Part shown: positions 4,805-61,200 of the stretch, in pieces
Layout: each line of letters begins with the position of its first letter
Numbering within the stretch: the first letter of the stretch is position 1
Source of the DNA: a virus
Lineage: Duplodnaviria; Caudoviricetes
Virus record (IMG/VR): IMGVR_UViG_3300043443_000284
Span: 439-64,438 of that record
Length of the DNA stretch: 64,000 nucleotides
Direction: 5' to 3' (one strand)
Notes under the pieces: generated by a model
The model's input: only the letters and a program-made list of their open reading frames with translations
Told to the model about the DNA's origin: nothing
The model's database searches: none
Translations under genes and position numbers: made by a program

Positions 4805-6186
4805 TACATACACCCCATTCGCTTGTAAGTTTTTACAAGGCTACCTTCTCTAGAACTTGTATTTACAAGTGTTTCTGTCTTGTCAAATTGACCATTAGTT
4901 ATATCTGCTACATCATACTCTGTTGTGCCACTACCAATAGATATTGTGGTTGCTAGTATATGTATCCTAAATACTGGCAGAGTGAATGGTAAGTCATATT
5001 CTGTTACACCTGACGTATTTTCATTACATAAATCATCTACTACATATCCACAAACTAATGGAAATAGATTTAAATAATCGGTACATTCACATGCGTTTGG
5101 TTGTTCTCCAACAGCTAGTAAAGTAGCCTTACCAATTATGCTGGATGTTCTAGTTACACCCGGAGTTTGCGGAGATACTGAATAAGATTGAAGTGTAGCT
5201 TTACCAGTAATACTAACAGTTCTGCCAACTCCATATATAGCCTGTAGTGTTGCAGACCCGCTAATGCTTGATGTTTTCTGCGATGACGTAATTGCAGTAA
5301 GCGTCCCAGATCCACTGAGTGAAGCAGGCGGAAACATTGCAAATGCCATCTGGGCATTAAGTGTTCCTGATCCACTAATAGAAGATGCATACGCATAACT
5401 ATACGCAGCCGACAATGTGCCAGAACCAGATATTGATGCGGATCTATTAAGTATTATAGAAGATGTTAAAGTTGAACTAGATGTAAGGTTTGATGCCTTA
5501 TCAAATGCAATATTAGATGTTAATGTACTAGATCCACTTATTGCAGATGCAACATTAATTGCTGAAGCAGTTGTCCCTGTAGCCGATAGAGTACTTGATG
5601 CTGAAGATGCACTAGAACCATTAAATGTAAACGATGAAGATAATGTCGATTTTGCAGAAATAGCTGACGCAGACGAACCTGTCGGGCTGGCTATTAATGT
5701 TGATGACGCACTAATTCCTGATGTCAACCCAATAGCAATAGATGAACTTAATGTACTAGACGCACTTAATGCACTGGATCTAGGAAATGTTGGGCCAGCA
5801 GCTACACTACTAGACGCAGATACTGCTGCTGTACGTGGAAACGTTGGTCCAGCAAATACTGTTGACGATGATGAAATTGCCGATGAGTATGAAAAAGAAT
5901 AAGTAGCCGATACTGTACTACTACAGCTTAATTGCGCTATTCCTACAAATACTGGAGACGCATTTAACGTACTGCTTGAAGATATTGATGATGAACGTAC
6001 AAATGACGCCGATGAAGTTAATGTGCTACTTGACGATATCGACGCTGATCGCTGGATTGACGGAGTTGCAGTAAGCGTAGCAGAGCCACTAAGGCTTGCT
6101 GCACCACTAGTTGTTAAAGAAGGTGCAGCAAGCCTTGCAGCAATAAACGCTACTGTTATGTAGCCAGCGCCAAGTGCTCCAGCCAT
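4804..6186 (-). CDS. Ser/Ala/Thr-rich repeat fibre-like structural protein
   Basis: About 18 copies of an ~18-aa repeat with core [IL]S[SGA]S[SG]TL, plus a Cys-containing C-terminal domain. Confidence 0.65.
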   Translation of the reverse strand: MAGALGAGYITVAFIAARLAAPSLTTSGAASLSGSATLTATPSIQRSASISSSSTLTSSASFVRSSSISSSSTLNASPVFVGIAQLSCSSTVSATYSFSYSSAISSSSTVFAGPTFPRTAAVSASSSVAAGPTFPRSSALSASSTLSSSIAIGLTSGISASSTLIASPTGSSASAISAKSTLSSSFTFNGSSASSASSTLSATGTTASAINVASAISGSSTLTSNIAFDKASNLTSSSTLTSSIILNRSASISGSGTLSAAYSYAYASSISGSGTLNAQMAFAMFPPASLSGSGTLTAITSSQKTSSISGSATLQAIYGVGRTVSITGKATLQSYSVSPQTPGVTRTSSIIGKATLLAVGEQPNACECTDYLNLFPLVCGYVVDDLCNENTSGVTEYDLPFTLPVFRIHILATTISIGSGTTEYDVADITNGQFDKTETLVNTSSREGSLVKTYKRMGCM

Positions 6187-20421: not shown

Positions 20422-21569
20422 TTTGTCACAATGTCATGCTGCCGTGCAGAAGGCCTTGGGAAGAATGCATTTTTAACGACACTGCCATATCCCTTTAAAA
20501 GGTCTTTTATCTGACCAACGTCTCCAGAGCCAATAGCGCCCATGGCTTTTACTAGCTCTTGAGTTGCTGGATGCTTTGCAAGATCTTCTTGATGATATTC
20601 CAGTGCTTGCATAAGTTTTAAAATATCCCAGCCTGTATTTTGAGCATTTGTTAAACCTAATTGCTGATTGTAATAATCGCCTTGCATTGCTGGTTTATAT
20701 TGGAATGCATCAAATTTAGGTAGATTTTGTCCATAGTTAGTAGATTCCATTGGCGGTGCAATGTTTGTATCTGGAAGTGACTGTGGATTTCCGCCAGTAA
20801 ATCGCGATGCAATTTCAGTTCCTTGCTGCATTACTGGTTGCAATATTTTCATCAAAGCCAATGTTGTTTCATCCCAATGTGGCTGTGTCATGTAATGCTC
20901 ACCTGCGTCAAGCATTTTCTTACTGCCAGCGACTGCTGGTTTTTTAGCAATATCTTTTTTTGCTAAATCATTAAGGTAATTTTCAAAACCGGGTATCGCC
21001 TGAAAGTATGATTTTCCTCCTAATTCTGGGCGACCTTTTTGTAAAAATCCTGCCAACTCCAATAATTGCTTATACATCATTGGGTCAGTAACAAGATTTG
21101 TCATTGGAGCTGATTTCTCTGCTTGTTTTATTCCCTGTTTAACAACTGGATTCGTTATGGCTGACCCCAAGCCGGGTAACCCCTTGCTTAATAAAAGTCC
21201 CATAAGTTGATCTTTTGCAAAATTACCACCACCTAATATAAGTTGTTCTCCAACTTTATTAGTTCGATATTTCGGATCTACATCTGGAGATAATTGTTTT
21301 AGTGCCGTTAGTCCTAGATCATGTGCCATTGGACCTTCAGTCATAACTCGTCCAACAGCTCGTTTAGCACCAGTCTTACCACTTAATTTATATGCAGTTG
21401 TGTCTGCTGCTAATTTACCAATTGGTTCAGTGGCATATGAACCCTGAGCTGCTTGCAATAACGTGACAAAAGGAGGAAGTGAGTTTAAGTAATCAGTCAT
21501 CTTTGCAGATGTAGATTTGTCCTGCCTTTCTGGTAAGTACCGAGTTCTTTTACCGGGTAACTCTTGCAT
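20418..21569 (-). CDS. Hypothetical protein (possible internal virion protein)
   Basis: 383-aa ORF coupled to neighbours; no family recognised. Confidence 0.6.
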   Translation of the reverse strand: MQELPGKRTRYLPERQDKSTSAKMTDYLNSLPPFVTLLQAAQGSYATEPIGKLAADTTAYKLSGKTGAKRAVGRVMTEGPMAHDLGLTALKQLSPDVDPKYRTNKVGEQLILGGGNFAKDQLMGLLLSKGLPGLGSAITNPVVKQGIKQAEKSAPMTNLVTDPMMYKQLLELAGFLQKGRPELGGKSYFQAIPGFENYLNDLAKKDIAKKPAVAGSKKMLDAGEHYMTQPHWDETTLALMKILQPVMQQGTEIASRFTGGNPQSLPDTNIAPPMESTNYGQNLPKFDAFQYKPAMQGDYYNQQLGLTNAQNTGWDILKLMQALEYHQEDLAKHPATQELVKAMGAIGSGDVGQIKDLLKGYGSVVKNAFFPRPSARQHDIVTK

Positions 21570-24500
21570 TACTGCCTCCTATCACCTGACTGTACTTGTA
21601 GTGCTCCAGCAAGTCCACTTAAGACGCCGTATTTACCAACAGCTTTACCTGCTCCTCCCGGCCTTGATTTACTCTTAAGTAATGCTTGCATGTTATCGAT
21701 TGGAACCATATTTCTTGCTGGAGGTTGTTTTGCAGGAGTTGCAGCAGACTGAACAATAGCTGGTCGGCGATTGATTTTAGTCCCACCAGATACTTTTTTG
21801 TAATCAGGCTTACCTTTCTTTGCATTTTCAATCTCAGAATATTTAGCAGCTCGAATTTTAATATCACTTAAATTAAATTCGTCTGTTTGCGTATATTTAC
21901 CAGCTTTACGTGACGCAGCTGCAATTTCTTCTAGGCGTTTAATGTCGTCGTTAGAACCCTCCGCGTAAATCCATCCAATTTCTGGGAAGAATTCAGTTGC
22001 GTAGAATTTTGCCTTTGATCTATTTACTGCACGAGTTTGCTCGTTAGCTTTGCGTGCTGCCTCAACCTTTTCTGCAATAGTGCGATCATCAGTTGGTTCA
22101 CTAGCAGGACGTTGCACATTTAATTTAGACCCACGGATTATCTGTTGTTGTGCAACATCAGCAGCTTCTGGCGTTACATCAAAGTTTTCAACAAAGTCGC
22201 GCAGTTGAGTATTAACTACTCTCATTTGATCGGCATCATCTGAAAGGTATGCATCAATATAATCACGCATGTAATCCCTTACCTGTGCTGTTTGCATGTT
22301 GTCTGCGCCAACCATTGGCATGGATCGTATTAAACTCTTCATTACCTGTTCTGCAGCAGCAGCTCGGCTATTAGGGTCAGCAATACCATTTCCATCCATT
22401 AACTCATCAGCGTATGTACGGATAACATTCTTGGCTTGGTTTGCCATCGAGAACACAGTTGATCGGTGATTATCAATTGCTGTTTGCCTTGCTTCCTTTT
22501 CTAATCCAGCAATAGCCTTTTCAGCTGTACCAAAAGATCTTCCTCTAGTACTTGTCGCATTCATAGCCCAGTTGACTTGTGCATCAGGCCGTAAACTATC
22601 GGCTGCTCCATATGCATCTAGGAAACCAAGTAATTGGCGTCCCTGTCGTGGAGTAGCTTTTTGCAGAAACTTTAATACCTCTGCAGTTTCAATCTTATTG
22701 TTTTTATCTACGTAGATACCGATCTCTTCAATCAAGTACTTACGTCGCTCTGCAGCATCTGGCCCAGATGGCTCAACGATATTCTGCAAGTGAACACGCA
22801 TGTCATTGACTTGCTGTCGCTTGTAATCTGCATTTACTGCTCCACCAGAACTAGTATCATTCGCAGCCTTACCAAGAAGTGCAGTTGCTTGTTGCTGTCC
22901 AGTATTTAACGGAGCAGAGGATGTCATTGGGCGACCAAAGATGTCTTTAGCCTGTACCCATGAGGACCCTTGTTTTTCGTACACAGGATAATCGACAAAT
23001 CCATCAGCGCCACGTTTTACCGACACCGTCATTTGCGCAGGGATTGGATTACCTTCTCGGTCAACAGGTGTAACTAAAACTGAATTACTAGAACGAGCCG
23101 TAGTTGACCCAGTACTTGAAAAGTATCTGTTAATGTCTACTTTTGAATCACCAGTAATCCATGCACTAAGCATGTCTGTAACCTGTGACACGCGACTAGC
23201 AGAACCAGTTGCAGCAATAGGTCGTGAATAATCTGGGCCATCAGGTGTCATGGCAAATAGATGTTTTCGTCCAGCACCAACTGAGACAAAATCATCTAAG
23301 TTGTTCATCGCCTTGTCGCGTGACCGTCTCAGTTCTGCCAGCATTGACTTAGCTGCAGATTCTTGATATCCACTTAGATTTCCAGAGTTGATTTGGAAGT
23401 TTAACTTACTGATTGCATCATCAACTGCATTCAGCGTTTGTGAAAACAATGGGTCATTCGCAATTGCCTTTGATCCATCTTTATTTGGAGCTAAATACGT
23501 AACAATATCTTCTAATCCAGATGTAGCAGCTAATTCAGTATCTGTATCAGAAATAAATCCTGTGTTGTACGCCTTTTTTGTTTCTCCGGAAAATCCACCA
23601 AATAAAGAAGAGTCAACACGGAAGTTTCCTGCTAGTCTTGCAATCAAATGGTCAGGAGACATTTTTAATTGGGATGCTTCGTACTTTTCATCAGCAGTTG
23701 CAAAGCTTTGCCTTCTTGCAAGATATGCATCAATACGTTGACGGCGACTACCACCAGCACCAGTGATGTTTTCAAGATCAATCAGTTTTAAATCACGTGG
23801 TCGCCCTTGTCCTTCAACTGGATCATTAGGGCCAAATAAGATATCTAGTTGGTCTGTACTTGCGTATGGAGCCATGATACGTTTTGCTAAACCCATATCT
23901 TTAGCATTCATAGCATCTTGTACCTTTGGTACATCCATTTCAAATTGATCTTCTTTGCCAGCAATATCAAACGTAAACAAGTTACGCATTGCACGCTTGA
24001 CTCCAAATGGAGCAGTAATCGCATCCATAACAACTTGCTTTGCTTCGTTATCATTGGAATCAAAAATTTGCTTGATAGTGTTATCTGTATCAACTACCTG
24101 TAAGTTAAACGCTAAGGCATTTTGAAAATATTGTCCAAGAGGTGTTTTGTGCAGAGTGTGAAAAGCTTCGATTGGATCATTGTTTGAGAATGCATCATAA
24201 AACGGTGTTGTAAAACTATTCATCAATCGAACAGCTGCAGAACGAGCAGTTCTGTTACCCACACCTCCGTCTGCAGTACGGTATGTAGCACCTGCTGCAA
24301 AGTTTTCACCAGCATCATCTATGGCATTTTTCATCACCATAGCTGTTGCGCCACGAATCCTATCGAATGACGCAACGTTTTTGGCTACTTGCCCACTTGC
24401 GCCAGTCCTAAACACGGCACCAAGTACTGGATCAGCTGCATACCACTTTTCAATGCCTTCCGAATACATCTTCATTGTGGGGTCGCCATATAAAGATGTA

Positions 24501-25864
24501 TTAAAATAGCTTCTAGCGTCTTCTACGTCGGCATCGTTATTCAGAGGAATAGATGCTAGGTACGCAATAGCACCTTTGGCTATACGTGTTTTTGCCGTAT
24601 TGTTGAATTGCTGTTGAGTACCAACATTTACAGCACTGGACAAAATGTTATAACCAGCACTTTGCGTAATTGCTTCTGACTCTGTGCGGTATTGAGTAGC
24701 CTTATTTGATATCTGTGTACGCAATGTATCTAACTGAGTTGGCGTAAACAAATCTTGTCCAGTTGATCTCTTGTACTCAACCATAACTTCATCAAGAGTC
24801 TTGCCATAGGAAGTTCGTGCAATTTGTGTAAATGGATGGTTTTCATTGATGGTCGTATTTTGACCCCAGATAGAACCAACCTCACTAATTAATCCACGAT
24901 CAAGATTTTCCGCACGAGTAAGATTTTTCCGTGCTTCACCAGCTAATTGATTATGTACTGTTTGAATAATGCCGAATGGATTGTTTGACATTCCACCTTT
25001 TTTAACAGTATCGCGAATCAAAGTGTCTGCACGTAATGTTGTACGTAACGCAGCAGGTGGTTGACTCAACGGGTCTACCATGACAAACGCATCACCGGAG
25101 ATTTTGCGTTTCTCCGCCATCGCTGCGCGTTGTATTTCCTCTTCCGTCTGAGGTATTTCGCTAGTCATACCTTGACCAAAACTAGGGCGCTGCATGCTAC
25201 CTAACTGAGCATCACGCTGTTCTTGTGTAAGTGCTCCTGCTTGAAATGCAGATTCAATACCCGCGTCATATCGCGCAGATGCCATGAGGTCGTCAGCTGA
25301 TGTACGTGGACTTGGACCAGCTCCCTGACCTGTAGGGCGAACGTCTTGGATACGTGTTTGTGTTGGTGGCAATTCAGTGCCAGCGGCTTCAGCTGCTTGT
25401 GATGCAGCTTCGTAGTCTAAATCACGACCAGCCTTTTTAATTATCTTATTGCCACTAGCATCTAACTTAGGTGTAAATGTAACTTTCCCGCTAATAGGGT
25501 CTACTGATGATTCACCTTCGTATTCAGTAAATGCTGGCTTAGTACCACCTTCTTGACTGCGCCAATCATAAGAAGGCAAATCGGCTCCACCAGTACCTCT
25601 TACTGGTGCTGCCTTTCGTAATGGACCAACTGCCTTTGGCTTTACAGGTCCGCGACCTTGTGACAACAGATCAAGCAATCCACCTAAATCTGGGGTTGCT
25701 CCTGTACCACTACCAGCTTGTTGTGCTGCTGGTGCTGTAGCAGGTGGTGGCATCTGCGGTGCTGGTTGACCAGCGGGAGGTACTGGAGTAGAAGGCGTAC
25801 CTGCTGGAGGTTGCGCATTTTTCTTCTCATCGTCCATCATCATATTCAACAACGCAGATGCCAT
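21569..25864 (-). CDS. Large hypothetical protein, 1431 aa (possible internal virion protein)
   Basis: Long ORF, Pro/Ala-rich disordered N-terminus, helical body, C-terminal KYGVLSGLAGAL motif. Confidence 0.7.
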   Translation of the reverse strand: MASALLNMMMDDEKKNAQPPAGTPSTPVPPAGQPAPQMPPPATAPAAQQAGSGTGATPDLGGLLDLLSQGRGPVKPKAVGPLRKAAPVRGTGGADLPSYDWRSQEGGTKPAFTEYEGESSVDPISGKVTFTPKLDASGNKIIKKAGRDLDYEAASQAAEAAGTELPPTQTRIQDVRPTGQGAGPSPRTSADDLMASARYDAGIESAFQAGALTQEQRDAQLGSMQRPSFGQGMTSEIPQTEEEIQRAAMAEKRKISGDAFVMVDPLSQPPAALRTTLRADTLIRDTVKKGGMSNNPFGIIQTVHNQLAGEARKNLTRAENLDRGLISEVGSIWGQNTTINENHPFTQIARTSYGKTLDEVMVEYKRSTGQDLFTPTQLDTLRTQISNKATQYRTESEAITQSAGYNILSSAVNVGTQQQFNNTAKTRIAKGAIAYLASIPLNNDADVEDARSYFNTSLYGDPTMKMYSEGIEKWYAADPVLGAVFRTGASGQVAKNVASFDRIRGATAMVMKNAIDDAGENFAAGATYRTADGGVGNRTARSAAVRLMNSFTTPFYDAFSNNDPIEAFHTLHKTPLGQYFQNALAFNLQVVDTDNTIKQIFDSNDNEAKQVVMDAITAPFGVKRAMRNLFTFDIAGKEDQFEMDVPKVQDAMNAKDMGLAKRIMAPYASTDQLDILFGPNDPVEGQGRPRDLKLIDLENITGAGGSRRQRIDAYLARRQSFATADEKYEASQLKMSPDHLIARLAGNFRVDSSLFGGFSGETKKAYNTGFISDTDTELAATSGLEDIVTYLAPNKDGSKAIANDPLFSQTLNAVDDAISKLNFQINSGNLSGYQESAAKSMLAELRRSRDKAMNNLDDFVSVGAGRKHLFAMTPDGPDYSRPIAATGSASRVSQVTDMLSAWITGDSKVDINRYFSSTGSTTARSSNSVLVTPVDREGNPIPAQMTVSVKRGADGFVDYPVYEKQGSSWVQAKDIFGRPMTSSAPLNTGQQQATALLGKAANDTSSGGAVNADYKRQQVNDMRVHLQNIVEPSGPDAAERRKYLIEEIGIYVDKNNKIETAEVLKFLQKATPRQGRQLLGFLDAYGAADSLRPDAQVNWAMNATSTRGRSFGTAEKAIAGLEKEARQTAIDNHRSTVFSMANQAKNVIRTYADELMDGNGIADPNSRAAAAEQVMKSLIRSMPMVGADNMQTAQVRDYMRDYIDAYLSDDADQMRVVNTQLRDFVENFDVTPEAADVAQQQIIRGSKLNVQRPASEPTDDRTIAEKVEAARKANEQTRAVNRSKAKFYATEFFPEIGWIYAEGSNDDIKRLEEIAAASRKAGKYTQTDEFNLSDIKIRAAKYSEIENAKKGKPDYKKVSGGTKINRRPAIVQSAATPAKQPPARNMVPIDNMQALLKSKSRPGGAGKAVGKYGVLSGLAGALQVQSGDRRQ

Positions 25865-27242: not shown

Positions 27243-27986
27243 TTACCCCCTTATGTTACACGCGCTATCCATAACGCGAGCCTTGGCTTTGCCTGATCCA
27301 TTTCCACTATTGGATTTAGGTTTTACTGGAGTTACCTTTTTAGGTTGTGGTTTGACAACTGGTTTCTGAATCACGGGAGGTTCATCTCGTGAGCGGTCCC
27401 GTCCAGTTGCAACTAAGGCTCCAGCCAATCCGCCTATTAGACCAAATTTAGGAGCAAACCGTACCGCGTTTCGCCCAGACGATTGCTTCATGGGTACAGG
27501 TTTTTGAGTAGGTGGCGTTGACACAGACGAGTTTGAATTAACTGTATTAGTTACACGGGCTGTGCTAGAAGATGCATTTCCGTTTGTGTTATTTCCGCTT
27601 GTCTTATTAGTTACGATTGTATTTGACGATTGTTTACTTGAAGATGGTTTATTACTAGTTGGTGTATTTGTTGATGGCTTATTACTAGTTGGTGTGTTTG
27701 TTGATGGCTTATTACCACTGGTGCTATCGGATTTAGGAACAGATGGCGAGGCTGGCTTATTATTGTAAGGCACTGGTGAAGGTGCTGATTTGTTACTGTA
27801 AGCCACTGGTCGTGGCATAGGCTTATTGGAAACAGGAACAGATGGAGCCATTGGCCTTGAAGCAGCACGCGGCATACTACCTTTGGCTGCAATATCAGGT
27901 GGTGCTTTAAGAGTCTGTTTAGCTCCATCAGGCTTGGCTTTAAGCGATTGCTTGGCGTTATCGGGTTGCTTCTTTTCGTTTTGCAT
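27243..27986 (-). CDS. Low-complexity basic protein with NKP repeats
   Basis: Disordered N/K/P/S/T-rich; KFGLIGGLAGAL segment; start set at MQNEK after AAGGTG (track start 28004). Confidence 0.6.
   Translation of the reverse strand: MQNEKKQPDNAKQSLKAKPDGAKQTLKAPPDIAAKGSMPRAASRPMAPSVPVSNKPMPRPVAYSNKSAPSPVPYNNKPASPSVPKSDSTSGNKPSTNTPTSNKPSTNTPTSNKPSSSKQSSNTIVTNKTSGNNTNGNASSSTARVTNTVNSNSSVSTPPTQKPVPMKQSSGRNAVRFAPKFGLIGGLAGALVATGRDRSRDEPPVIQKPVVKPQPKKVTPVKPKSNSGNGSGKAKARVMDSACNIRG
27643..27714 (+). repeat. In-frame 30-bp tandem repeat (about 2.4 copies; NKPSTNTPTS)
   Basis: gatgg(t/c)ttattactagttggtgt(a/g)tttgtt at 27643 and 27673, partial at 27703. Confidence 0.9.
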
Positions 27987-28011
27987 AATACACCTTGAAT
28001 GCATTATACAT

Positions 28012-32329: not shown

Positions 32330-32398
32330 GTAGCCGACGCTCCTTGCGTTCGCTACAGGGTGCGCAGGGTGTAGCGTATACACCTTGCGCGCCCTTTT
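32330..32398 (+). promoter_or_regulatory. Two-hairpin leader/attenuator-like structure before first early gene
   Basis: GTAGC..ACGC-TCCTT-GCGT..GCTAC, then 17-bp stem 32357-32373/32379-32395 with two G-U pairs, followed by T-rich tract. Confidence 0.55.
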
Positions 32399-32464: not shown

Positions 32465-32845
32465 ATGTCTACAATTCGCGCTGAGTTTATCAATGTCGTT
32501 TCCCTGTTAGAGTCTGAGTTTCCAGAGTCCAATATCTCTAACTGCTGTCGCAACATGTTGCGCAACGCTACTGCACCTGACCGCCCGGTGTCCAAGTGGC
32601 ATGTCGTCACCCGTCGTGGCAATGTCCCTGAGACTTGGGATGCCACCGTTGCTATCACTGACCTTCGTAACACGGTTGCCCTTGCGCATCGTGAAGGTTT
32701 CTTGGACGATGCTGGTTACAAGCAGTTTGAGATTGCCATCCACGAGTGGAAGGAAGACCTCAAGGTTGAGAAGGTTGAGGATGCCTTCGCTATCCTTCAG
32801 AAGTCCATCCGCCGGGATGCACGTCGGTTGGCTAAGGGGGGCTAG
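32465..32845 (+). CDS. First early protein, hypothetical
   Basis: AAGGAG SD before ATG 32465; own terminator downstream. Confidence 0.75.
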   Translation: MSTIRAEFINVVSLLESEFPESNISNCCRNMLRNATAPDRPVSKWHVVTRRGNVPETWDATVAITDLRNTVALAHREGFLDDAGYKQFEIAIHEWKEDLKVEKVEDAFAILQKSIRRDARRLAKGG

Positions 32846-32854
32846 TCCCCTTGA

Positions 32855-32889
32855 CCTACTCGGGACTCAATCCCGGGTAGGTTTTTTTA
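32855..32889 (+). terminator. Intrinsic terminator
   Basis: CCTACTCGGGA-CTCAA-TCCCGGGTAGG + T7. Confidence 0.85.
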
Positions 32890-32924
32890 TATCTATTTTT
32901 TTGAAAAACACAGGAGAAAAATAT

Positions 32925-33254
32925 ATGGCAGTTGTTATTACCCGGCATCTTGGTGCTGTTGATTGGTTGATTCGTCACGGGTTTATCAAGAACGACCCTA
33001 ACGAGGATTGTGTTATTGACCACGCTACTGAAGCAGATGTACGTGGACAGGTTGTATATGGCGTATTGCCATTACACCTTGCGAGTAAGGCAGCATGTGT
33101 ATGGAGTATTGATATTCCTAACCTGCCTGTGAATCGCAGGGGAACTGAGCTGAGCGCAGACGATATGGATGCGTTCGGTGCGCATTGCACACGCTATTAC
33201 GTGCAGTGTATTGAGACACGCACATCAGGTGCGTTCAAGGAGGAAAGCAAGTGA
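32925..33254 (+). CDS. csx16: Csx16-family (Cas_VVA1548-like) protein, candidate cyclic-oligoadenylate ring nuclease
   Basis: AGGAG SD; 109 aa; TRHLGAVDWL, VYGVLPLHLA, RRGTELSADDM..G.....YYV match Csx16 motifs recognised by eye. Confidence 0.8.
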   Translation: MAVVITRHLGAVDWLIRHGFIKNDPNEDCVIDHATEADVRGQVVYGVLPLHLASKAACVWSIDIPNLPVNRRGTELSADDMDAFGAHCTRYYVQCIETRTSGAFKEESK

Positions 33255-33457
33255 AGACACGCAAGTATTGGGCCGATGATCGGTCACGGTTGGATGATGA
33301 CCAACAGGACTTGGATGACGCGACTGCTGTTATTGCAGCCCTATCGGGTTGTGATGACGATAATGTCCCGACATCACAAGCGAGCGGGAGTTTGCGTGGT
33401 GTTTGGGTTCGCTCAAACGATGACGCTATCTTGCGCAGGTTTCGTCGTATTCGCTGA
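33251..33457 (+). CDS. Hypothetical acidic protein (68 aa)
   Basis: GTG start overlapping csx16 stop, AGGAGG SD; followed by terminator. Confidence 0.45.
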   Translation: MKTRKYWADDRSRLDDDQQDLDDATAVIAALSGCDDDNVPTSQASGSLRGVWVRSNDDAILRRFRRIR

Positions 33458-33475: not shown

Positions 33476-33506
33476 CCCCACTGGAGTAATCTGGTGGGGT
33501 TTTTTT
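33476..33506 (+). terminator. Intrinsic terminator
   Basis: CCCCACTGGA-GTAA-TCTGGTGGGG + T7. Confidence 0.85.
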
Positions 33507-33909: not shown

Positions 33910-33937
33910 GGAGGGGCGCAAGCCCCTCCATTTTTTT
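33910..33937 (+). terminator. Intrinsic terminator
   Basis: GGAGGGGC-GCAA-GCCCCTCC-A-T7. Confidence 0.9.
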
Positions 33938-41451: not shown

Positions 41452-41958
41452 ATGCCGAATTGGTGCGATAACACATTTATTGTTTCTGGTGACAACATCG
41501 ACGATGTAACAAAATGGCAAACAGAAAACACAACTGTAGATAAACACGGTCTCTACCAAGTAGATTTCAATGGATCAGTGCCAATGCCAGATGAAGAAGA
41601 TGGCAACAACTGGTACACATGGTCTCTGTCCAACTGGGGGACTAAATGGAATGCATGTTACGGATGCATACTGGAGAGCATTGGTAACGATAACGAGTTA
41701 CGGTATTCGTTCGACACAGCATGGGGGCCACCACGTGAATGGTTCATCACTATGAGTGCAAAGTATCCCAAGCTCAACTTTGTAATGCACTACTCAGAAC
41801 CGGGCATGTGCTTTGCTGGCACTATGTCTAGACAAGATGGTTACTTTGACGAAGTGCAGCGATGTGACGAAGACTTAACTGATGAAGACAAAGAAGCAAT
41901 GGGATACACACCATGTGAAGCATGTGGTGGTTGGGAAGAAGAATGTATGTGTGACTAA
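41452..41958 (+). CDS. YubB/Api92-like ferredoxin-fold protein (DUF1281-related)
   Basis: MPNWC.N, W...NWGTKWNA, FDTAWGPP, YSEPGMCFAG signatures. Confidence 0.8.
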   Translation: MPNWCDNTFIVSGDNIDDVTKWQTENTTVDKHGLYQVDFNGSVPMPDEEDGNNWYTWSLSNWGTKWNACYGCILESIGNDNELRYSFDTAWGPPREWFITMSAKYPKLNFVMHYSEPGMCFAGTMSRQDGYFDEVQRCDEDLTDEDKEAMGYTPCEACGGWEEECMCD

Positions 41959-48463: not shown

Positions 48464-49228
48464 ATAGACTTTCTTTTGGTCACTATTGGCGATGCAATCA
48501 AGATTAAAACTACGAGCAAGATCTCTGATTGCTGCATACGATTTACCATCTCGTAGAATGCATTGAACGGCCAGTGGCTCACCATTGAGTACTGGCCCAT
48601 CTTCCCAAGCCAATACAATATTGTCCCCAGCGACAAGCCGAACAAAGTCACGCACAGGCGCGTATGTCCTTCCGTTCTGCAATAAGGCAACAATGTGGTT
48701 GTCTCCATATACAATCTTCCAATCCTGCCCAGTTTGAATCAATGACCAAGGTCTAATGAATCGAACAATATCCCTATTGCGATTTCCATACAATGATCTA
48801 TGGGCTACTTCATATCCATTGCGACTGCCATCATTGTTGCTGTTTCCCTCAATGGATTTCCAAACACCTTCCTCATCTTTGCCTTCAACAATTCCAATGT
48901 GAAATGCATCTTGTCGTCCATTCTTTAAGGTCTTGACCAAGATAACTAAATCACCAGCCATCGGAGTTGTATGCAATACACCGTGTTTTTTAGCAACAGC
49001 TAACCAGACATCGCAGTCTGCACTAAAACACAATGGCCAATCCAATCCACTTTTGTTTTCCCACTCAGCAGCAATGCCACTTACGAATGATGCGCACCAA
49101 TAACTACCAATAGGCGCATTAACTAATGTGTTCCATCTGTCGATCATTGGTCCACAGTTACTACCTACAGGTTGCTCTAAGACACCGATGTATTTCTGTG
49201 CTGTTGTTATAAAAATACTTGCGCTCAT
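48446..49228 (-). CDS. Endolysin: CHAP peptidase plus C-terminal stalk-like (copper amine oxidase N-terminal-like) domain
   Basis: YWCASFV, FHIGIV, SIEGNS catalytic motifs; NGRTYAPVRD and DGKSYAAIRDL repeats. Confidence 0.85.
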   Translation of the reverse strand: MSASIFITTAQKYIGVLEQPVGSNCGPMIDRWNTLVNAPIGSYWCASFVSGIAAEWENKSGLDWPLCFSADCDVWLAVAKKHGVLHTTPMAGDLVILVKTLKNGRQDAFHIGIVEGKDEEGVWKSIEGNSNNDGSRNGYEVAHRSLYGNRNRDIVRFIRPWSLIQTGQDWKIVYGDNHIVALLQNGRTYAPVRDFVRLVAGDNIVLAWEDGPVLNGEPLAVQCILRDGKSYAAIRDLARSFNLDCIANSDQKKVYLKKTI

Positions 49229-52200
49229 TTATCCATCTTCTCCCGACCTCTACGATACATATCGCTCATTTGCTCTAGAGTCATCTCAGGTATTGTCACC
49301 TTGCCCTTTTTCTCCTTCATGGATTCCCTTAAACGTTCACTGCGTTCAGTAGATGAATCAATCACAGCCTGTGTAGGTAATCCGGGTCTTCTTACTGGCT
49401 GCTTACTTTCCCATCCATCTCCACCAATATCTCCACTACCGGGTATACCCTCAAAGAGACTCCATAATCCGTACTGGCTAATCATGTCAAACATGTTTGG
49501 ATAATCGTATTGCTGAGTCTTCATCTCGTTAGACAACTCACCTATGGTTATGCCTCCAGATTTCAAACTTGGAATCTGCTTTTGAATCATAACGTTAGAA
49601 TAGTTATTTTCTACACCAAACATACGACCCGCCATTGAAAGTCCGACGTTGTACTGTGCATTTGGTTGATATTCCATAAGCTCAATATCTTGCATTAACT
49701 TTTGAATTGGCAAAATCTCTTGCTCAATAGCAAACCTACTGGCACCACGAGGATACATCTTCTGCAGTCTAAAAAGATCTAAAGAATAAATACCAGCACG
49801 CTGTAAGTAGTAATTTGGATTCTGTAAGAACCGATAGAACCCCGGATGCTGTTGATAAAGAGCTGTGTTGTTAAACGTACGTCCAGTCATCTGATTCCAT
49901 GCGCCAGAATACATAGCGTTAACACGGCTTGTGACTTCGGTTCTAAGTATCGTTTCAGCTATAGCTCGAGCAGGACTTTCGCCATCGTTAATTTTTTGCT
50001 GAACGTAATCAAGTGGGGCCAGTACAAATCTATGTAGTCCCATAATGATAGGAGGTGCCTGAACCTGCATGTTACCTAAAGTAATAACTTTTCCAAATTT
50101 AGATGACTTCAGTAACTCTTGCTGCTCTACACCAGCATTCATTTCATCCATTAACTGTGCAATTTTTGCAACTTCATACCACTCAGTTGGTTTACCCTGC
50201 GCAGCCAGAAGCGCACGCTCTTGAATATTTGTTTGCATTGCTGCAAATAACCATCCAAGTGCAGCAACCTGCCCAAACGCAGCAGCCTTTCGTTGCAGGT
50301 CAAATAGCGCTGGAGTCTTAGAAGTAATCCCTCCCGGCGTCGTAAACGTACTGATTGCCCGAATGTAGTTATGGTAAGCGCCTACATTTAATGTGTTGTA
50401 CTCCGCACCATTAAATACTTTTCTCCAAACAGGACGTAACAGTGAGTTGATTCCATGTGCTAATCCAAGCTCAATCATCATTGGCAAGTATGTAACTGCC
50501 TTTAATGACTTACCCCAGTTAGGAGCAGTATAAACAGATGCTAACTTGTATCCTAAATCTCTAGCAACAGGATGGACGTTAGGGTCTTCACCAACTGGCG
50601 TTCCGGATATCGTGTTGATAATACGCGCAAATTCTCGCTTAGATCTTTCAGCTTCGTAATAAGCAGACTTTTCACTTGATGCACCAGAACGTAAGTAGTC
50701 AAATATACGCCTATCAATAACACGCGATATCTCTAGGAATTGCTTGATGCGTAAAATGTCAGTAGACATAACACCACCGCGCTCCATCATTCCAACAAAT
50801 GGAATAACTCTCTGCGCTAAAACGCCAGTACCCAAGTTCTCTGCACCTGTTAACTGTATAGGGGTGTCATACAGTGTCATCAAAGGATTCTGTGCTTGAG
50901 CAGCAGCTGCTGTTTCGTACCATTCTCCATAGGTTGTTGCTAAGCCCATGTTGTTTAAGTCTTCAATGGTATATGACTGGTGTTTATTAGCTTCCCTGTC
51001 GTAGAACCCACCAACTGTAGCCCTATGAATACCGGGGATGCCATATCCAATAACACTACCCTTGCGTCCATACTTGTCAAACAAACCTGAAATAATTTTG
51101 TGATACTGCATGTCTCCGAGTGCAACATTTTTATGATGTCCAAACATCTTGCCTAGAACACCAGCACTGTGGTTACTGCCATGCGGGAACCAAAGATTTG
51201 GGAACATGCCCAACAATCCATAGAACTGCATTGCTGTGTTCTTTGGGTTCATGGCTGTAAGCATGAAGTTCTGAATCATAGGTCTGGCAAAGTCTCGGCT
51301 TAACCGCTTTGCTGTTTCTAAACCACTTAACTCAGTCCATCCGTTTAATACAGTTCTCCAGAATGGTGCGTCTTTAGGTAGCGTGTTTAACGGCATTGAC
51401 GCTCCACCGTTTTCAGGAACCTCACTTAAAAGCGTTGTGACTGATGGGTCGGAACTAAACAGTACATTCAACGTCTCAGTAAACTTACTACTTGGAATAG
51501 TGACATGAACATCACTACCATCTACTGCAATACCAACTTGATCGTTATCTGTGTGACGCTTGAATACAATGTTCTTTGGTTCACCTATGTCATTCATCTT
51601 CTCTTGAATGAGTTCATATCTTTGTTGCTTCCATTCATTAGCGAGGCGTTGGTCATTGTCGGCTAATGGAGGCTGCTCTGGTAGATTGCGGAGTAAATCC
51701 ATCTCGTAATCGCTGAATGGTTTTCCGCTCTCAGATGGTAATTCACCTGAAGACAACCACGTGCCTTTACGTGAATTATTTACAAGCACTGACTGAAGTA
51801 CGTCGTACGTCTCATCGCCGACATTAGCAATAGCCTTCTTAATGCGGAAGTTATCCTTCATTCCATCCTTCCATGCTTGTGGTATAGATTGAGGATTCTC
51901 TCGTTGCGCCCTAGCAACAAGCATCTTGGCTACGTAAATCTCTGGCTGAATAATTGATGTCTTACGAATGCGTTCAATCGCACTGTAGTTATCTGGTGTT
52001 GCACTATCAAAATATCGTTGCGTAGCAAGCCACATCAATTTAGACGGACTCTGACGCATCACTCTTTGATTATTGACATACGTCATGTCTTCTGGGCCAT
52101 CACCTGAAATATGGTAACCAGAGTATGGATTAACGATTTTGTCTACGGAAAAATGAATGCCAGTTTTAGCAGCAGTCTTTGGATTCTCCTTATTAATCCT

Positions 52201-55200
52201 ATAGAAATACATGCCGTCTGGTGCATTAGGATTAGTCACATCCTTTGTGCGCATAATGACAATGCCACTTTTACTAATCCTGTACTGTTCCTGCTCAATG
52301 GGTGTCATTGAATTGACTAGCATGTCTTCCTGTTGAATAGGCATGCCAATCTTCTTGCCATCCTGATCACGTTCTGCAACTTGCGCTACAAATGGAACCT
52401 CTGCATCAGGGTTAAATAATGGATATCGACTACTATGAACATCTGCCTTAAATACATGGCCAGCTCGCAAGTGGTCAACACCGATGTTTTGTACGTGGTT
52501 CTTATGGAAATCCACCTGCATCATTCGTCCAGATGGATCCATAATGCGAACCTTTCCATTATCAGCAAATGCAGAAGATGGTAAAGAGTATTGATTCCAC
52601 TTGTACTTAGCCGTGTTGATTTGCCGTTCTTGTAAATCAAGAATGTGGCTAGTAGCCATTGCAAGCTGCATTGCACGTTCGCGTTCATTTGAATCAGGAC
52701 TTGCAAGACGTTGCATAAATTCCCATTTACCAACAACGTTATCTCGTCCAAAGATTACGTCAGTTACACGATTTAGGACATAACCGGCACTATTAGTCTG
52801 GTATGCATCCAATGGCATTGATAAGTTTTGATTCAGTTCAATACCTTTAATCATCTCGGATATGGTGGTGTAACCCATGAATGGATCACTTGTACCGACG
52901 CCGGATGCTTGCATTACTGACTGTAGTAACGGAACAACATCTGTGACTGCGCCGTTGTACATTGCGTCAGTTGTCAACTGAAATTGTTCATCAACATCAG
53001 CGTTGAATGTTGAAATGAAATCACTAACCCGATCCTGTAATGCAACTTTATTTGATCGTGCCTCGCCACGAGTTAATGGCCGTGGGTTAACAGCATTGTA
53101 AATATCCATATACAACGCTTCGATGCCTTGATCAATAAAGTCACTGACTCCCTCTGGTGCAACGTTAGCCTTAATTGCCTTATTCCGTAAAGCATCAGTC
53201 ACCTTCTGGTGAAATCCGCGCAACGCTTCGTAGTCTGGCATTCCGGGGCGCATTTCAAAAGCTGATCCCTCAGCATTTAATTCACCAAATCTAAAACTAC
53301 GTAGAGAGTTCCTAAATAATCGCTGACTGTCAATGTATTTAGCTAATGGGTTGACAGCGAATTGGTTTAGGTCATCAATGAACATTGCACCTTCTTCAGT
53401 GTATGTACCATCTGTACCTATTAATCTCTTTGCACGCATAAGACCAAGCAACTCGTTTTCAAAACTTGATCTACCTGTAGTCATGTTTGCATACATGTCT
53501 ACACCAGCTGCTCTAACATCCTTGCCTTGGTCAGACCAGTATGCGGCGATTCTGTCTTTAGGGTCTACCCCTTGACGCATATCTGTACGGAAATCTTCTG
53601 GAGTGCCTGTGACAATATGCTTCTCAAACTTTAACTGGTCTTGGTATGAGTGATAATTAGACACAGCGCGAGTCACAGTGTCAATTTTTCTGTTTAAGTC
53701 ATACAACACAGCAGAGAATTTAGGATTGTAATCACCTGTAAATCCAAGTAGTTGAGGATTGTATTCTGAATTTGTTAAAGAATCAGCTGAAACAATCCAT
53801 CGTGCATTGGTTTGATAACTACTTGATGTACCCTTGCGGTTTGGTTCATACATCGTGACTTCAACTGGTGCTTCTAATACAAAGTAACTATCAACTGCGG
53901 GGACAGTCGTGTAGCCATCAGCAGTTTTTTCCAAACGCGATTTAAAGAAACCGCTATCATGTACGCCATCGTTGTCCTTCATGCTTGCAAATGAGAATGT
54001 CTTTCCTCCCATTTGATATGCAAAGATAGTCGGCTGTTGGTCGGTTCCAGCAGTCTTTAAAACAACTTGATCTACAATGCGACCATTAAATCTTTGTCCC
54101 CAGATAGTTCGATCCGTATTCATTTCGGTACGGTCTCTGCCAATAGGGTTTACATAAAACGCAACTTTACGACCCTTGGCTAAGCGACCTGCAATATCAG
54201 ACAGTGCTCTTTCATTGTCAATTGGAGCATTAACCTGATGTGTCACTGTCTGCCCATCAAGTGTGAAAGTTGCTTTAGATTTAAAACCAAACTTATGAGT
54301 AGTACTATTTGTGGCAACTCCGGTGGTAGTCCACATAGTCAATAAGTCAGGCAAGTTGAACATGTCATGTCGTGAAGTTGTTAACTTAGTTTCATTTGGG
54401 ATGACTAAGCGGACATAATCTCCCTGCCGTACCTGTGGATAATCAATACCGCGCCCACGCCCAGTGGTGTATTTAGCAACTGGAACATTAGATGCCCATG
54501 ACCTGTATGGCTTTCCATTACGAATCACAATGTCAGGTTGGTTAGCCCTAGACAATTGATGCCACATACTTCTGATTGGGCCAGCAACCTGTTGAAAGAT
54601 TGCAGCAGCATCCGTGTCCATTGCGGAAGATGCATCCATTGATGTTGGCTCGCTAAAGTCAGTAATGAAATTCTGTAAAGCAGTGGCAAATAATTCGTGG
54701 CCACTGTTGTACCAGTCAGACTGCATTACAGAGATGCGCTCATCTGACATTCCTTCTTTACGCCAGAACTCAACAACGGAAGGGTCACGCCACATATCCT
54801 GTAAGCCAACTCCGCGTTTACCCGGGTTAGCAGCATCATAAATGTCGATAGCCTTTAACTGTAATACGACAGGATACAAAGGGTTTGTTTTAGCAGTGGC
54901 ATCTGCGATGTCGTCAAATTGTGGGACTAGTGACCTTAAGAACTTAACTTGATTGGTGTCATCAAGCGCAGTAAACAAACTGTGAGTCATTTCGTGGAAT
55001 AAAGTATCAGCAGTACGTGGGCCATTAGCGTCCGAGCTAAGCATCATTAATCTTTGCGTTGCTAAGAATGCTCCATGTACTAACTTCCCGCCTTGTGCTG
55101 TTATCATCTGCGCATTAGATTTAGACATCAAGTCACTTGATGTCATCATTAACTTGCCAGCATGTAAGTAGTAATTAACGCGACCCTTAGCAATTAAGTA

Positions 55201-58200
55201 CGTTGCTAACGCAGTTTGTTGCTCATTGGTCATGAATTGCCGTGCTACCTCACCACGAGTCAATCCACGCTCTTGACCTTCAGATAATATCTGGTCAAGC
55301 GAACCTGCTTTTCCCTTAAAGTAATTTACTACCCGTGTGTCAACACCAACCTTAACCATCGCGTCAGCAACAATTGCTCTATGCTCAGGCAAAGATGATG
55401 TAAGCAACATTGCATACTGTTGTTTTCCGTAACCATATGCAAAGTTGTCATATGTCTTTGCTAATCCAGCAGATAGCTCACGTGCTGCTCCAATGAATTG
55501 CCTGTCCCGCTCAACCTTCGCAGCCTTTTCTTGGTACTGGCTACGTTGTAAATAAATATTTTTGATGCGCTCTATTGATTCCTGAGTCGTTCGACCATAA
55601 CGATCCATATCTATCTTGGAATACATCTTGTAAAGCTGCTCTGCTGTTGCAGGTGTCATTGCAGCTAGACCATCTGCTGTAGGTTCAGAAAGGATAGATG
55701 GTAAGTTTTTCGGATGCAAGAACGATACATAGTATTCACTATTGATATCGGACGACAGTGCAGATATTGCGGTGGCAATTTGATATGGAGTATCTACATA
55801 ACCGTCTGCATGCGAATACGTTGTCCCCAATAAATCTGGCTTATTGAAGACATCTAAGACAGCCGTCTCTGAAAAAGCCATGATCATTTGAGCACGAATG
55901 TCTGGGTCAATACGCGCTTTATCAATTGTTCGTGCGACTGTATTAGATAGATCTGCTACTAGTGTATTAACATCGCTATATGCACTTGCATTCGCAAGTA
56001 TGGCATCAATCTCAGGGAGGATGTTATTTAATGATCGACGTGCTCCTGATGGGACTTCAAGACTCTTAATAAGTTGCTCTGTAGCCAATCGCAATCGAGG
56101 TGCCCACAATGTTTGAGCGGTATTAACTAAGTGGTCGTTGTCAAAAAATGATTGTTCTCCCAGCGCACCAGTTCGCTGAGGTTTATACGCACCATTAGAC
56201 ATAACGCCACGTTGCGTGTTTACCGATTCTCCAAGGTCCGCGACGGCTTCGTCAGTAGATTCAAAATCAAACTGGCGTAGTAACAATGACTCAAGTAGCG
56301 TACGCATGCCTTCATAGTTACGCGCATGTAATGAATATAACTTCACGCGCTTCGAGTCTGGAATAGTAGATGTTGCCATACCGTCAAATGCAACATCATC
56401 TACGAGGTCACTTTCCATTGCCTGAATACTAATGACTGGCGTTGGATCAAGGAATGCAGCCATATCTAAATCAATGGCATCGCGATCAAACATTAAATCC
56501 GCTTCACCAATAGTTGGATCAGCACTGAGTGCGTCATGATTCAAATCATCGATTGAACGCAAGTGCTCACTGATTTCTTTGCGCCCATTAAGAGCATTCA
56601 TCGTTAACCCAGTAAGCGTAATTGTTCCAGCTTCAATGTCTTCCGTTATTTCAATAGGCGCACTTGCTTGTCGCAATGCTTGGACATCGTCACTGATATT
56701 ACGAGTACGACTATATTCACGAGACACATCGCTAAGAACGTTGTTCTTAATCTGAGTAATCTTTTGTGGCCCAGTGAAAATATCCTTAGAAATAAGGCCT
56801 AGCATTTCAGCTGACATATTTCCAATGATTGTTAAGCTGTCAGCCATAGATGCCGGGTCAGACAAATCAATGATATTTGGCAACTCAGCGGAAACATACT
56901 CATTGAATGCGGTTAATGCGTCTGAAAAAGGAGTGATTGTGTTTGTCTTATTAGTAGTAGTAGCTAATGTATCTCCTTCAATTCGCTTAATTAAATTATC
57001 GTAATACTTAGATACGCCTAATTGAAACTGCTCAGACTTACCAGATTGCACAGCCTGTTTTAAAGCAGCTTCCTTCTCTTGATTTAGTTTCTTCTTGTAA
57101 GCCTCAAGTTCTTTTGGAGCTAAATCTGATAACTGTTGAGCAGATGACTGAGCTACATCAGCCACACCCTCTTCTGATGCTTGTTTAACAACACGCGCAC
57201 CACTTCTACTACCAGCTAAATCAAACGTCCCAAATGACTCAGTATAAATACTTCCAGAAGCAAAGTAGTCATTCTGGTAGTCATCAAATGCATTACGTAA
57301 AACGTCATAAACAGACCTAAGTTCTGTAGTATCAACTTTAAGTATTGATTCATAGGTGTCTACAAGATCGCCTACTACATCTAACACTTTGATTAATGAG
57401 CGATATGCAGAATTAAATGCCTGTTGTTTTGCACCAGCTAACTCACTAGATAACCGATTAACTTCAGCATCATTCTTTGCGGTTAATGCCTGATTTAACT
57501 GATCCTGTATAGTACGCACGCCATAGTGGTCTTCCCACCGTGCAACATGGCTTGTTAATTGTGGTGCATCTTCAAATGTAAAGTGACCAAGCGCTCGTGC
57601 TAACTGAGTTACAGCAAAACCAGACCGTAATTTTTCGTATGCAGATCGTCGTGCAAGTTCAGTAATGTCGTAACTAGCCATAGTTTCGTTACGAGCAACA
57701 GTAGCAAGAGTCGGATCATTCTCAAAATCGGCAGCCATATCTTCTTGGATTTTGGCAACATCATCTTCACTTAACGCCTGATCAATAATCATTTGCGCAG
57801 CGCGGTCAATTGTCTGTTGATATTGAACCAATCCCAAATCATTAGCAGAGCCGTCGCTTAGTAATGTGTACTCGACGTTACCAGTAATGTTAGATGGTCT
57901 GTAGGCAGAAATATTAGCAAGTTGCTCAGGACTCATATCCTGAATTTGCCCACGTAAATTATTCAATGCCGTCAATAAATCTGTTTTGGCTTGTGTGTCA
58001 ATAAGTTCAGAGTTTGCAACACTGCGAACGATATCTTCACCAAACCTTGCAATGACTTGAATAAACGACACTTGGTTAGTCTGATGGACTGTTGACTCAT
58101 CAACATAACCCATGAAGTCACCAGAGCTAATGTCAGATTCAATTGCTTTTAAAACAATCGTAGGGATGGCTTCATTCGATACGTATGTATTTAACTTACG

Positions 58201-61200
58201 CTGCCAGTCACGATATGCATTAGCGTCTTCGTTGATTGACTTGACAATATTTGCACGGCGTTGTTCAGTAGCTGCGTACCATAAAAACTCTAGCCCTAAA
58301 TCTGATAAAGCAGCTTTCGTTTCAAATGGGTCTTGGGTTGCTATCTTTTTCTGAACGGTCATAACGGCTTGCTTATAAGCACGCTCACTCGTCCAGAACC
58401 TAGATAGGATTGGATCAAATCCAGCACTTGTTATTAAAGATAGGCCAGTCGGATCGGACGTAACAGCAATTGCCCTACCAAGAAACACTTGCATTTCGGG
58501 TGAAGCGCCAGCAAGTGTGCGCATCTGCCACATATTGTCAGCATGGTATGCAGCATGAGGCGCTATTCCACGTAGTTGGTATGCATAAGCAATAGCGTCA
58601 CGTCGTGTTGCTGGAGTATCAATTACGTTTAATGATTTAACGGCTTGAGCATAAAGAGCGTCTGGAGTACGAATTGAATTACTGCGGTATGCAAGTATGT
58701 TCATTCTCCTAGCAATAGCATGCGCAGTTGACCGACTCTGAATTGACTGGGCACTAAGTAATGCTCCAGATTTACCAAGAGACATTAATCCATCAAGGTA
58801 ATAAAGCTGCTCCATAAAACCGGAATCACCATAGAGGTCAGCCACACGTACAAGATAGTTATATACGGTTGTCCCCGGTTTGATAGCGTCATCGTAAACG
58901 CCAACGACTGCGTCGAAAACAGCCTCAACATTTTGATTAGCAGCAGCCCATGAGATTAATCCAAGTTTGACATCACCACTAAACGCATTACCAGATTTAA
59001 CAACATCTAATAATATTCCCGGCAGTTCTTCTGCTGTGGCGCCTTCTATACGCGTCCTCTGGTTTTTTGATGAACGTAATGCCATGTACGTGTTGAACTC
59101 TTCTTCATCAGTGAGAGTTCTAGTCCAAGGCCTGTGATACGGAACGTCATCAGTTGGCCTAAAGTTGTCGAGTCTTGTTTGCAATTCGCCTCGATCAGCT
59201 TGAGATTCAATAATGACATTGTCAACAGGAACTGTGTAAGCGTCACCAGTTGGGTCAGACAACAAACGAACAGTTACTAAATTGTTATCCGACTTAATGA
59301 CAATTGCTTTTTCTAAATCAGATTCCGTAGTAAATGCACCTGATACTAAATCACCTACCTGTACATCAACGTCGTTAATCAAATCACCGCTTACTGGATC
59401 CATACGCATTGCTTGGCGCGTTCCAGCAACATTCAAAGCGTAATCTTCAGCAACAATATTACGAATGGTCTGTGCTTTTTCTTCTAAAGTCCCACCACCA
59501 TCCAAGACTGTTTCCAATAAGTCTAAAACCTCTAAAGACACTGGAACCCTAGCTGGTAAGCCAGTGTCGTGGATATCCATGCGGATATAGCCAATTTGTG
59601 AGTCAACTGCAATACGTGCATCTTTAATCGTCTGTGTATTTGCAGTATCTGGTGACTGCTCTAATTGACGAGCACTTAATGGAGTCTTGGTCTGAACCCT
59701 TGCTTGCTCAGCCGACAAAGGCTGCATATATACAGTTCCGTCTGGCAACTGATAGATACCCATAGGCTGAGTTCCACCAGCAGTCTCAATGAGACGTCCA
59801 TTTACAAAGCGCACTTGACCATCTTCGGATGTAAACGGAACCTTATCCGGAAAGTCTTGGCTTTCAGTAAAGTCCAACAGTTCTTTACCGGCTTCAGACT
59901 CAGTTGTTGTATTTAGGATAGTTAAAATTGGGCGCAAAGTGTCAAGTAATCGTAGGTTGTTTGCTGATAGATCCCTCATTAAATCTACTGCGCCAACATT
60001 TTCTACACTGACATTTCCCTCGCGTGTTCTCGTCTTAAGCATGATTTGTCCACCGGGATTAAAACCTGCAATAGATTTTGTTTTCCCACCGGAAGACCAT
60101 CTGTTTCGCGAGTTGAACGGGTTAAAAATATCGAGCCTAGAAGATAAGGCTTTTACTAATTGCTCTGCCGTGTAGAATGCTGACTTCCTATTTACGGTAG
60201 GTTGATCCAAAAAGATTAAATCGGAAGTATCTTCATCACCACGAACAATTTCTTGAGACCTAAATGTATAACCATCAGGCCCGCGATGTGGATTAAATGC
60301 TAGATATTGCGGGACTCCGTCGGCAGCATCTTCGATACGCACAGCAAAGAACTGCTGTTGTTGTGATCGAGGTGCAACAGTCCTCTGTTGGGCTTGTTGC
60401 TCCGGTGTGCCAGTCGCTGGCTCAACTGGCTTTTCGGTTGGTTGCTGACTTGCCTTCATTGCGTCCAACATTCGTTTTTCAATGTGTGGAGTTAATTCGG
60501 CAATTGCACGACTCTTTGCTTTTGGATCTACGACAAAGATGTTTTCATTTATGCGTTGTTGTAATAACGGATTGTTGTCAGATAATGGAGCCTTGTCTCC
60601 CTTGACGCGCATAGATGTAACTAACTTATTAAATTGCTCTTGCAGTGGAGCGTCGTCAAGCGCACGGCCAGTAAGTAGTTTTTGGAAGAATACTTCAGCA
60701 GCATGCGTAGGAAGAACTTCACCAGAAATAACTGCTTGGCGAGCTGGTTCTGCAATCATTTCATATGCAGCACTAACAACACGCTTAACGTCATCTGGGT
60801 TGGCGTCTTTTCCAGTAAGTTGCTTAAAGCGTTGTTGAACAACATCGCTTCTCCACCCACCAGAATCAACCCAGTCACGGGCAACTAACGTTGCTTCCGT
60901 TTTAATATCTGACCCTTGACCCAATACTTTGCCACGCAAAGCCGGAGTCATAAATGCAGATAACTTTCCTGCCGGTCTCACAGCAGTAAACGTCAGTAAT
61001 GCTGCGCGACCAATGTCAGACATAGTCGGCAACTTGTAGGCTTTCTCGCCAGTCTCAGTTAGTGTTTGATCAGTAATTGCCCGATAGGTCTGAGCAATAG
61101 GTTCAAATGCGTTGTTAATTCCAAATGCAGCATCTGGGCCAACGCTACCAATAAGTTCGGTCTTCTCACGCAACAGCCGATCTCCAGCATTAAGGAATCG

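Follow-up and report, generated by a model that had tools for sequence, protein, structure and literature searches.

The gene csx16 lies on the plus strand at positions 32925..33254 of the window, by which we mean the whole analysed stretch of 64,000 nucleotides. It encodes a 109-aa protein of the Csx16/Cas_VVA1548 family which, given its HMM matches, conserved residues, predicted fold and a dN/dS of 0.12, we regard as a putative cA4 ring nuclease. The open reading frame runs from an ATG at 32925 to a TGA at 33252-33254 and comprises 109 codons. Reading the sequence 5' of it, we find a Shine-Dalgarno motif (AGGAG, 32912..32916, plus strand) 8 nt before the ATG, and the GGAG is retained upstream of csx16 in related phages. 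We prefer this ATG as the start because the homologues all open with M-x-[VI]-[VI]-[VI]-T-R-H, and because related phages carry indels just upstream of it whose lengths are not multiples of three. A 117-aa version returned by the gene caller (P0002) begins with a TTG at 32901, that is, inside the spacer following a terminator, and is less likely. A 217-aa frame (32601-33254) that shares the frame of csx16 is an artefact, as it overlaps the first gene of the arm in another frame and crosses the terminator hairpin. The initial annotation had described a 109-aa reading frame with its own Shine-Dalgarno motif and the motifs RHxGA..W, GxLPxHLA and RGxELS. All of this is borne out: the motifs are present as TRHLGAVDW (residues 6-14), GVLPLHLA (46-53) and RRGTELS (71-77), and they coincide with invariant or near-invariant columns in an alignment of 78 sequences.

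The gene belongs to a rightward early arm, which diverges from a leftward one whose first genes are an ORF of 98 aa and a DCD/dUTPase-like gene. The rightward arm opens with gene 1 (32465..32845, plus strand), a 126-aa ORFan; related phages (L002, L035 and L004) have orthologues of it in the corresponding place, with 26-30% identity. We were not able to find a family for it in Pfam, NCBIfam or PHROGs, its sole match being a sub-threshold one to DUF6303 (E 0.07). The next gene is csx16, and it is followed by a 68-aa acidic ORFan (33251..33457, plus strand) that is conserved in the lineage alignment and starts at a GTG overlapping the TGA of csx16 (GTGA). For this small protein we found no match in Pfam, PHROGs or PADLOC, no usable atlas match and no fold assignment.

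Two hairpins followed by T-runs enclose csx16 and the 68-aa ORF, so that the description as a terminator-bounded two-gene unit is accurate, as is the rank of csx16 as second gene in the early arm. The first hairpin (32853..32883, plus strand) lies between gene 1 and csx16 and resembles an intrinsic terminator, with a stem of 13 bp, a loop of 5 nt and a run of seven T; its main stem has a predicted energy of -21.8 kcal/mol, and the folded stretch 32836-32892, which includes a small upstream hairpin besides it, has a z of -4.15. The second (33476..33499, plus strand), likewise terminator-like, ends the unit with a 10 bp stem, a 4-nt loop and again seven T (-16.8 kcal/mol, z -3.94). Furthermore, there are plus-strand hairpins with T-runs ahead of gene 1 (32357-32395) and downstream of the second flanking hairpin (33910-33929). 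A strong hairpin with a T-run thus precedes each first early gene or gene pair, the next start codon being 20-70 nt away. Both hairpins around the csx16 unit are kept in related phages (L038-L041) with pair-preserving changes. We could not recognise a sigma-70-like promoter on the plus strand between the four hairpins, and csx16 is therefore probably transcribed by read-through or antitermination from an upstream start. The series of hairpins suggests a read-through or antitermination cascade, or else sites of RNA processing and stabilisation. Judging from its position, csx16 would be expressed early.

The virus record from IMG/VR has a length of 64,438 bp and is rated 97% complete, and the window covers almost all of it. 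Phage hallmarks of the record are its portal, its TerL and a helicase of the DnaB type, and two tRNAs are present as well. A single ORF of 4,482 aa (window 49225-62673, minus strand) accounts for 21% of the genome. Two further large ORFs, of 1,431 aa (21569-25864) and 1,109 aa (1484-4813), have no PHROG match, and at 41452-41958 (plus strand) we see a 168-aa protein with a DUF1281_C / Api92-like ferredoxin-like domain (E 1.5e-11). We found no near-identical phage record. TerL, portal and DnaB have at most 35% identity to their counterparts in cultured phages of Actinomycetota, Pseudomonadota (Alphaproteobacteria, Vibrio) and Bacillota, and given this mixture of hosts we make no host call.

The absence of cas genes and of an array, noted initially for the window, extends to the full 64,438-bp record: the search for Cas10/Cmr2 gave nothing, and neither the spaced-repeat search nor the search with Rfam CRISPR-repeat models found an array or even lone repeats. 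Three tandem 30-nt (10-codon) repeats at window 27632-27721 (minus strand), within a 253-aa ORF (27243-28004), are not CRISPR-like. The phage csx16 therefore stands outside any type III CRISPR-Cas locus, which is a feature of its context and not of its structure. In this sense the designation as a stand-alone phage Csx16 is correct with respect to the family, the phage genome and the place in the early arm.

The gene product belongs almost certainly to the Csx16 family. It matches Pfam PF09652 (Cas_VVA1548) over model positions 2-90 of 91 with an E of 2.4e-18 and 66.5 bits, where the gathering score is 25 bits. The PADLOC Csx16 models match as well (best E 4.7e-19), and they include models of CARF-HEPN-Csx16 and CARF-Csx16-TM fusions. 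On the other hand, the threshold of NCBIfam TIGR02620 is not reached (40.6 bits, E 2.2e-10, against a curated cutoff of 46.35 bits), which marks the phage sequences as divergent from the CRISPR-associated seed sequences; they are a divergent clade of the Csx16 family, not a separate family. The PHROGs search returned no family for csx16 or its neighbours. An exhaustive phmmer search against 1.84 billion cluster representatives gave 1,199 clusters at E<=1e-3, 152 of them at E<=1e-10. In the alignment of 78 sequences twelve positions are invariant or conserved in at least 90% (R7, H8, L15, V44, G46, P49, L52, A53, R72, G73, L76 and Y91), and the phage protein retains every one of them. The initial annotation had placed the protein in a family different from the DUF1874 ring nucleases. 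This agrees with what we find, as the protein has no PF08960 hit at E<=1 and the DUF1874 search of the whole record was negative.

An AlphaFold2 model built from the 78-sequence alignment is confident (pLDDT 92.4, pTM 0.80) and has five strands with short flanking helices in a Rossmann/CARF-like arrangement. In this model the conserved residues appear to sit in loops straight after strands 1, 3 and 4. Loops at these strand ends form the usual ligand-binding crown of Rossmann/CARF-like folds. Foldseek searches of the PDB and BFVD gave no match at E<=1e-3; among the weak rows, CARF and ring-nuclease chains are enriched. A phmmer search of the PDB returned DARPin/ankyrin matches (dozens of chains, E 1e-4 to 1e-2), which we rejected as spurious: the matching stretches are brief, repeated and of low score, and the model does not have a helical-repeat fold. 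They arise because G.LPLHLA in the 109-aa protein (P0001, residues 46-53) resembles the ankyrin consensus TPLHLA. Note that this likeness of GVLPLHLA to the ankyrin repeat is a trap for the automated annotation of Csx16 proteins.

Natural tandem Csx16-Csx16 proteins exist (P0011, P0021 and P0090), and these fusions fit a dimeric working unit. For example, P0011 is a tandem fusion of 205 aa (L037 896-1513), both halves of which are 46-49% identical to the phage Csx16, and its AlphaFold2 model is one confident two-domain unit (pLDDT 93.3, pTM 0.85). Its contig is phage-like, with GH25 lysozyme, DUF1257 and DUF2997 genes beside it. In the second repeat of P0011 the R-H of the family is replaced by D-K; by its sequence, the pseudo-dimer may have a single active site.

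The same gene is found at the equivalent place of the early arm in at least four further groups of related uncultivated phage contigs. The identity to the csx16 of the window is 87% in L038/L039 (L038 comes from a 64,375-bp contig), 78% in L040/L041, 61-62% in L002/L003/L004 (L002 comes from a 66,075-bp contig) and 52-58% in L035/L036. In all these groups csx16 is the second or third gene of the arm that diverges from DCD/dUTPase. The shared order consists of the DCD/dUTPase gene on the minus strand and, on the plus strand, an ORFan of about 125 aa, sometimes an extra gene of 105-133 aa, then csx16 and an ORF of about 70 aa; in L040 the leading plus-strand ORFan has 74 aa instead of about 125 aa. 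According to the Nei-Gojobori method, the dN/dS of csx16 is 0.12 against L038 (dS 0.73) and 0.12-0.26 for the remaining non-saturated pairs. These low values show that the gene is maintained by purifying selection.

The ORF of about 70 aa lies directly 3' of csx16 in every member of the lineage that we checked, and in most of them the two genes overlap. Across the lineage the C-terminus of the 68-aa protein is near-invariant (GVWV[R/T]SNDDAILRRFRR). A profile search for this partner among 5.8 billion proteins returned five clusters, all of which belong to the present phage lineage.

Outside this lineage, stand-alone csx16 occurs in an unrelated IMG/VR phage (L005/L006) that encodes RecA, DnaB, a primase and a PDDEXK nuclease. 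There (L006 5992-7144, L005 2476-3628) an RNA ligase gene (PF09414) comes immediately after csx16 and overlaps it; the ligase may give the phage a second means against effectors that cleave RNA. Annotated copies are also present in the archaeal viruses Drs3 and PhiF3, to which we return below. A look through viral databases, as suggested initially, finds csx16 in the related phage groups, in an unrelated phage and in viruses of archaea. We looked for cellular copies with a motif-seeded search of one genome per prokaryotic species, which yielded 28 cellular loci of 32-44% identity, mostly from Pseudomonadota such as Chromatiaceae; since a relative must share two short motifs to be found in this way, the counts of three viral and 28 cellular loci are lower bounds. 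The two cellular loci that we examined (L007 and L026) are of type III-B, with Cmr3, Cmr4, Cmr6, Cas10 and a Csx1-type CARF protein (TIGR02221); Cmr1 was detected in L026 and not in L007. In L007 csx16 is found directly 3' of the CARF gene, in L026 just beyond the cmr genes.

We wanted to know where the phage gene comes from. In a tree calculated from 101 columns, in which most forks are poorly resolved, the phage lineage joins sequences known only from metagenomes (SH-aLRT 89) and is separate from the proteobacterial III-B clade. The initial annotation had proposed that the phage co-opted a ring nuclease of its host. This proposal is not sustained: the phage proteins are at most 44% identical to any cellular copy found and group with the metagenome-only sequences, so we name no donor and claim no recent capture from a host.

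[quoted passage not shown] As to Csx16 itself, its conserved His, Arg and acidic residues and its fusions to Csx1 had led to the prediction of ring nuclease activity (Makarova 2020, as reported in PMC8284326). For one cellular enzyme there is now experimental support as a cA4 ring nuclease (Hoikkala et al. 2025; PMC12409355). In that work, purified Csx16 fully converted a 100-fold excess of cA4 into linear products in a buffer with EDTA, with multiple turnover; it did not cleave cA6, and it did not cleave cA3 even with 10-fold more enzyme (PMC12409355). Ring nucleases of cellular loci are accompanied solely by effectors that depend on cA4, and of 28,114 phage genomes two carry Csx16, 36 AcrIII-1 and four Csx20 (PMC12409355). 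The ability of AcrIII-1 and other viral ring nucleases to function as anti-CRISPRs is described in PMC13148439.

Because Csx16 is experimentally supported as a cA4-specific ring nuclease (PMC12409355), the best-supported reading of the phage gene is that of a metal-independent cA4 ring nuclease acting against type III CRISPR, and we put the probability of this reading at roughly 0.7. The initial annotation had arrived at a candidate anti-type III ring nuclease, and the family, the phage context and the early position all agree with it. The protein would be made from the first transcripts after infection and would act as a homodimeric, metal-independent phosphodiesterase. Its conserved face, to which the loops following strands 1, 3 and 4 contribute R7-H8, G46..P49 and R72-G73, would bind cA4, and the enzyme would cleave the ring to short linear products. 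When the Cas10 of the host senses phage RNA and makes cA4, the phage Csx16 would remove it, and host CARF effectors such as Csx1, Can or Cam would stay inactive. Such a strategy would be like that of AcrIII-1, performed by a different sequence family.

Alternatively, the phage protein could bind cA4 or another cyclic oligonucleotide and turn it over so slowly that it serves as a sponge and not as an enzyme. There is a precedent in Csx15, a related small CARF-type protein that works well as a sponge for cA4 and very slowly as a nuclease, and phages commonly use sponges against CBASS, Thoeris and Pycsar (PMC13148439). The position of the phage clade below the TIGR02620 cutoff also means that its activity could have drifted. 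However, the phage protein has kept the R-H dyad and the further polar residues that are conserved in the family, and the Csx16 that was assayed turns over many times when its substrate is in 100-fold excess (PMC12409355). It has furthermore been argued that the amounts of cOA made by type III systems are too large for a sponge to be worthwhile, and that Csx15 itself is absent from phage genomes (PMC13148439). Taken together, we consider a sponge unlikely.

Just as improbable, in our estimate, is that the protein degrades or binds another signal, such as cA3, cA6 or the messenger of CBASS or of another defence, and so counters a different system. Specificity does vary among the ring nuclease families (Csx20 also cuts cA3, and that of Crn4 is broad), and the phage clade is only 33-44% identical to the CRISPR-linked copies found. 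On the other hand, the residues of the ligand face are common to phage and cellular copies, and the specificity of the sole characterised Csx16 for cA4, as well as the restriction of cellular ring nucleases to cA4-dependent effectors (PMC12409355), speak for cA4 as the ligand.

We know of no member of the Csx16 family with a role unrelated to cOA. A function outside defence, for example as a nucleotide- or RNA-binding regulator of the phage early programme together with the 68-aa protein, would be in line with the strict linkage and mostly translational coupling of csx16 to a lineage-specific ORFan, but it is the least probable reading of all, given that both cellular loci examined are of type III, that fusions to CARF-HEPN effectors exist and that stand-alone copies recur in unrelated viruses (archaeal siphoviruses and another IMG/VR phage), as expected of a mobile counter-defence gene.

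Returning to the anti-type III ring nuclease, the 68-aa acidic protein could be part of the same counter-defence. In such a two-component module the small protein might tune the activity of the ring nuclease or act against type III immunity at a further step (e.g. an effector or Cas10), and the conserved hairpins might grade the expression of the pair via read-through or antitermination. We offer this extension as a tentative idea with a rather small chance of being right.

If the reading as a ring nuclease is correct, what does it add? Our full-text literature search found no publication that characterises a viral Csx16, in agreement with the initial annotation, which knew of no characterised phage Csx16. 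The novelty is smaller than was hoped, as Csx16 had already been counted in two of 28,114 phage genomes (PMC12409355) and is annotated in Drs3 and PhiF3. The idea of a phage Csx16 as an anti-CRISPR is already in the literature, and the present gene opens no new question; it is a credible candidate for a further case of a known viral tactic. What is specific to this case is the fixed position across a lineage of phages of about 64-66 kb, the enclosure of the unit by terminators and the 68-aa partner that is strictly inherited with csx16. That csx16 is under purifying selection at a fixed early site across the lineage suggests that several families of CRISPR off-switches serve as anti-CRISPRs. 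At 109 aa and well conserved, the protein is also a compact candidate for biochemistry.

One of the closest known systems is AcrIII-1 / Crn2 (DUF1874, PF08960), a viral cA4 ring nuclease and anti-CRISPR (Athukoralage et al. 2020, as cited in PMC13148439). The phage Csx16 has no match to it at the level of sequence and a weak similarity in structure, nor is a correspondence of their catalytic residues known. Orthologues of Csx20 and Crn4 in phages and plasmids are likewise CRISPR ring nucleases on mobile elements and have been proposed as anti-CRISPRs; they are, however, of other sequence families, and Crn4 has an unrelated fold and a broad specificity. The copies of Methanobacterium virus Drs3 and of PhiF3 are annotated stand-alone Csx16 proteins of tailed viruses with no adjoining CRISPR locus, as in the present phage. 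They may be the two phage matches counted in PMC12409355. They differ from the present gene in that they belong to archaeal viruses, have 34-37% identity to it and lie at a genome end, whereas csx16 is found here at a divergent early junction. Finally, cellular Csx16 (PF09652; TIGR02620) shares with the phage protein the same Pfam family over the full length, the R-H, G..LP..LA and RG.EL motifs, a size of about 100 aa, a predicted five-stranded CARF-like fold and even the same weak best neighbour in the PDB. The phage copy differs from it by the lack of cas genes in its genome, an identity of at most 44%, a score below the TIGR02620 cutoff and the coupled 68-aa ORF, and presumably also by its role, which would be the sabotage of a signal that the cellular protein resets.
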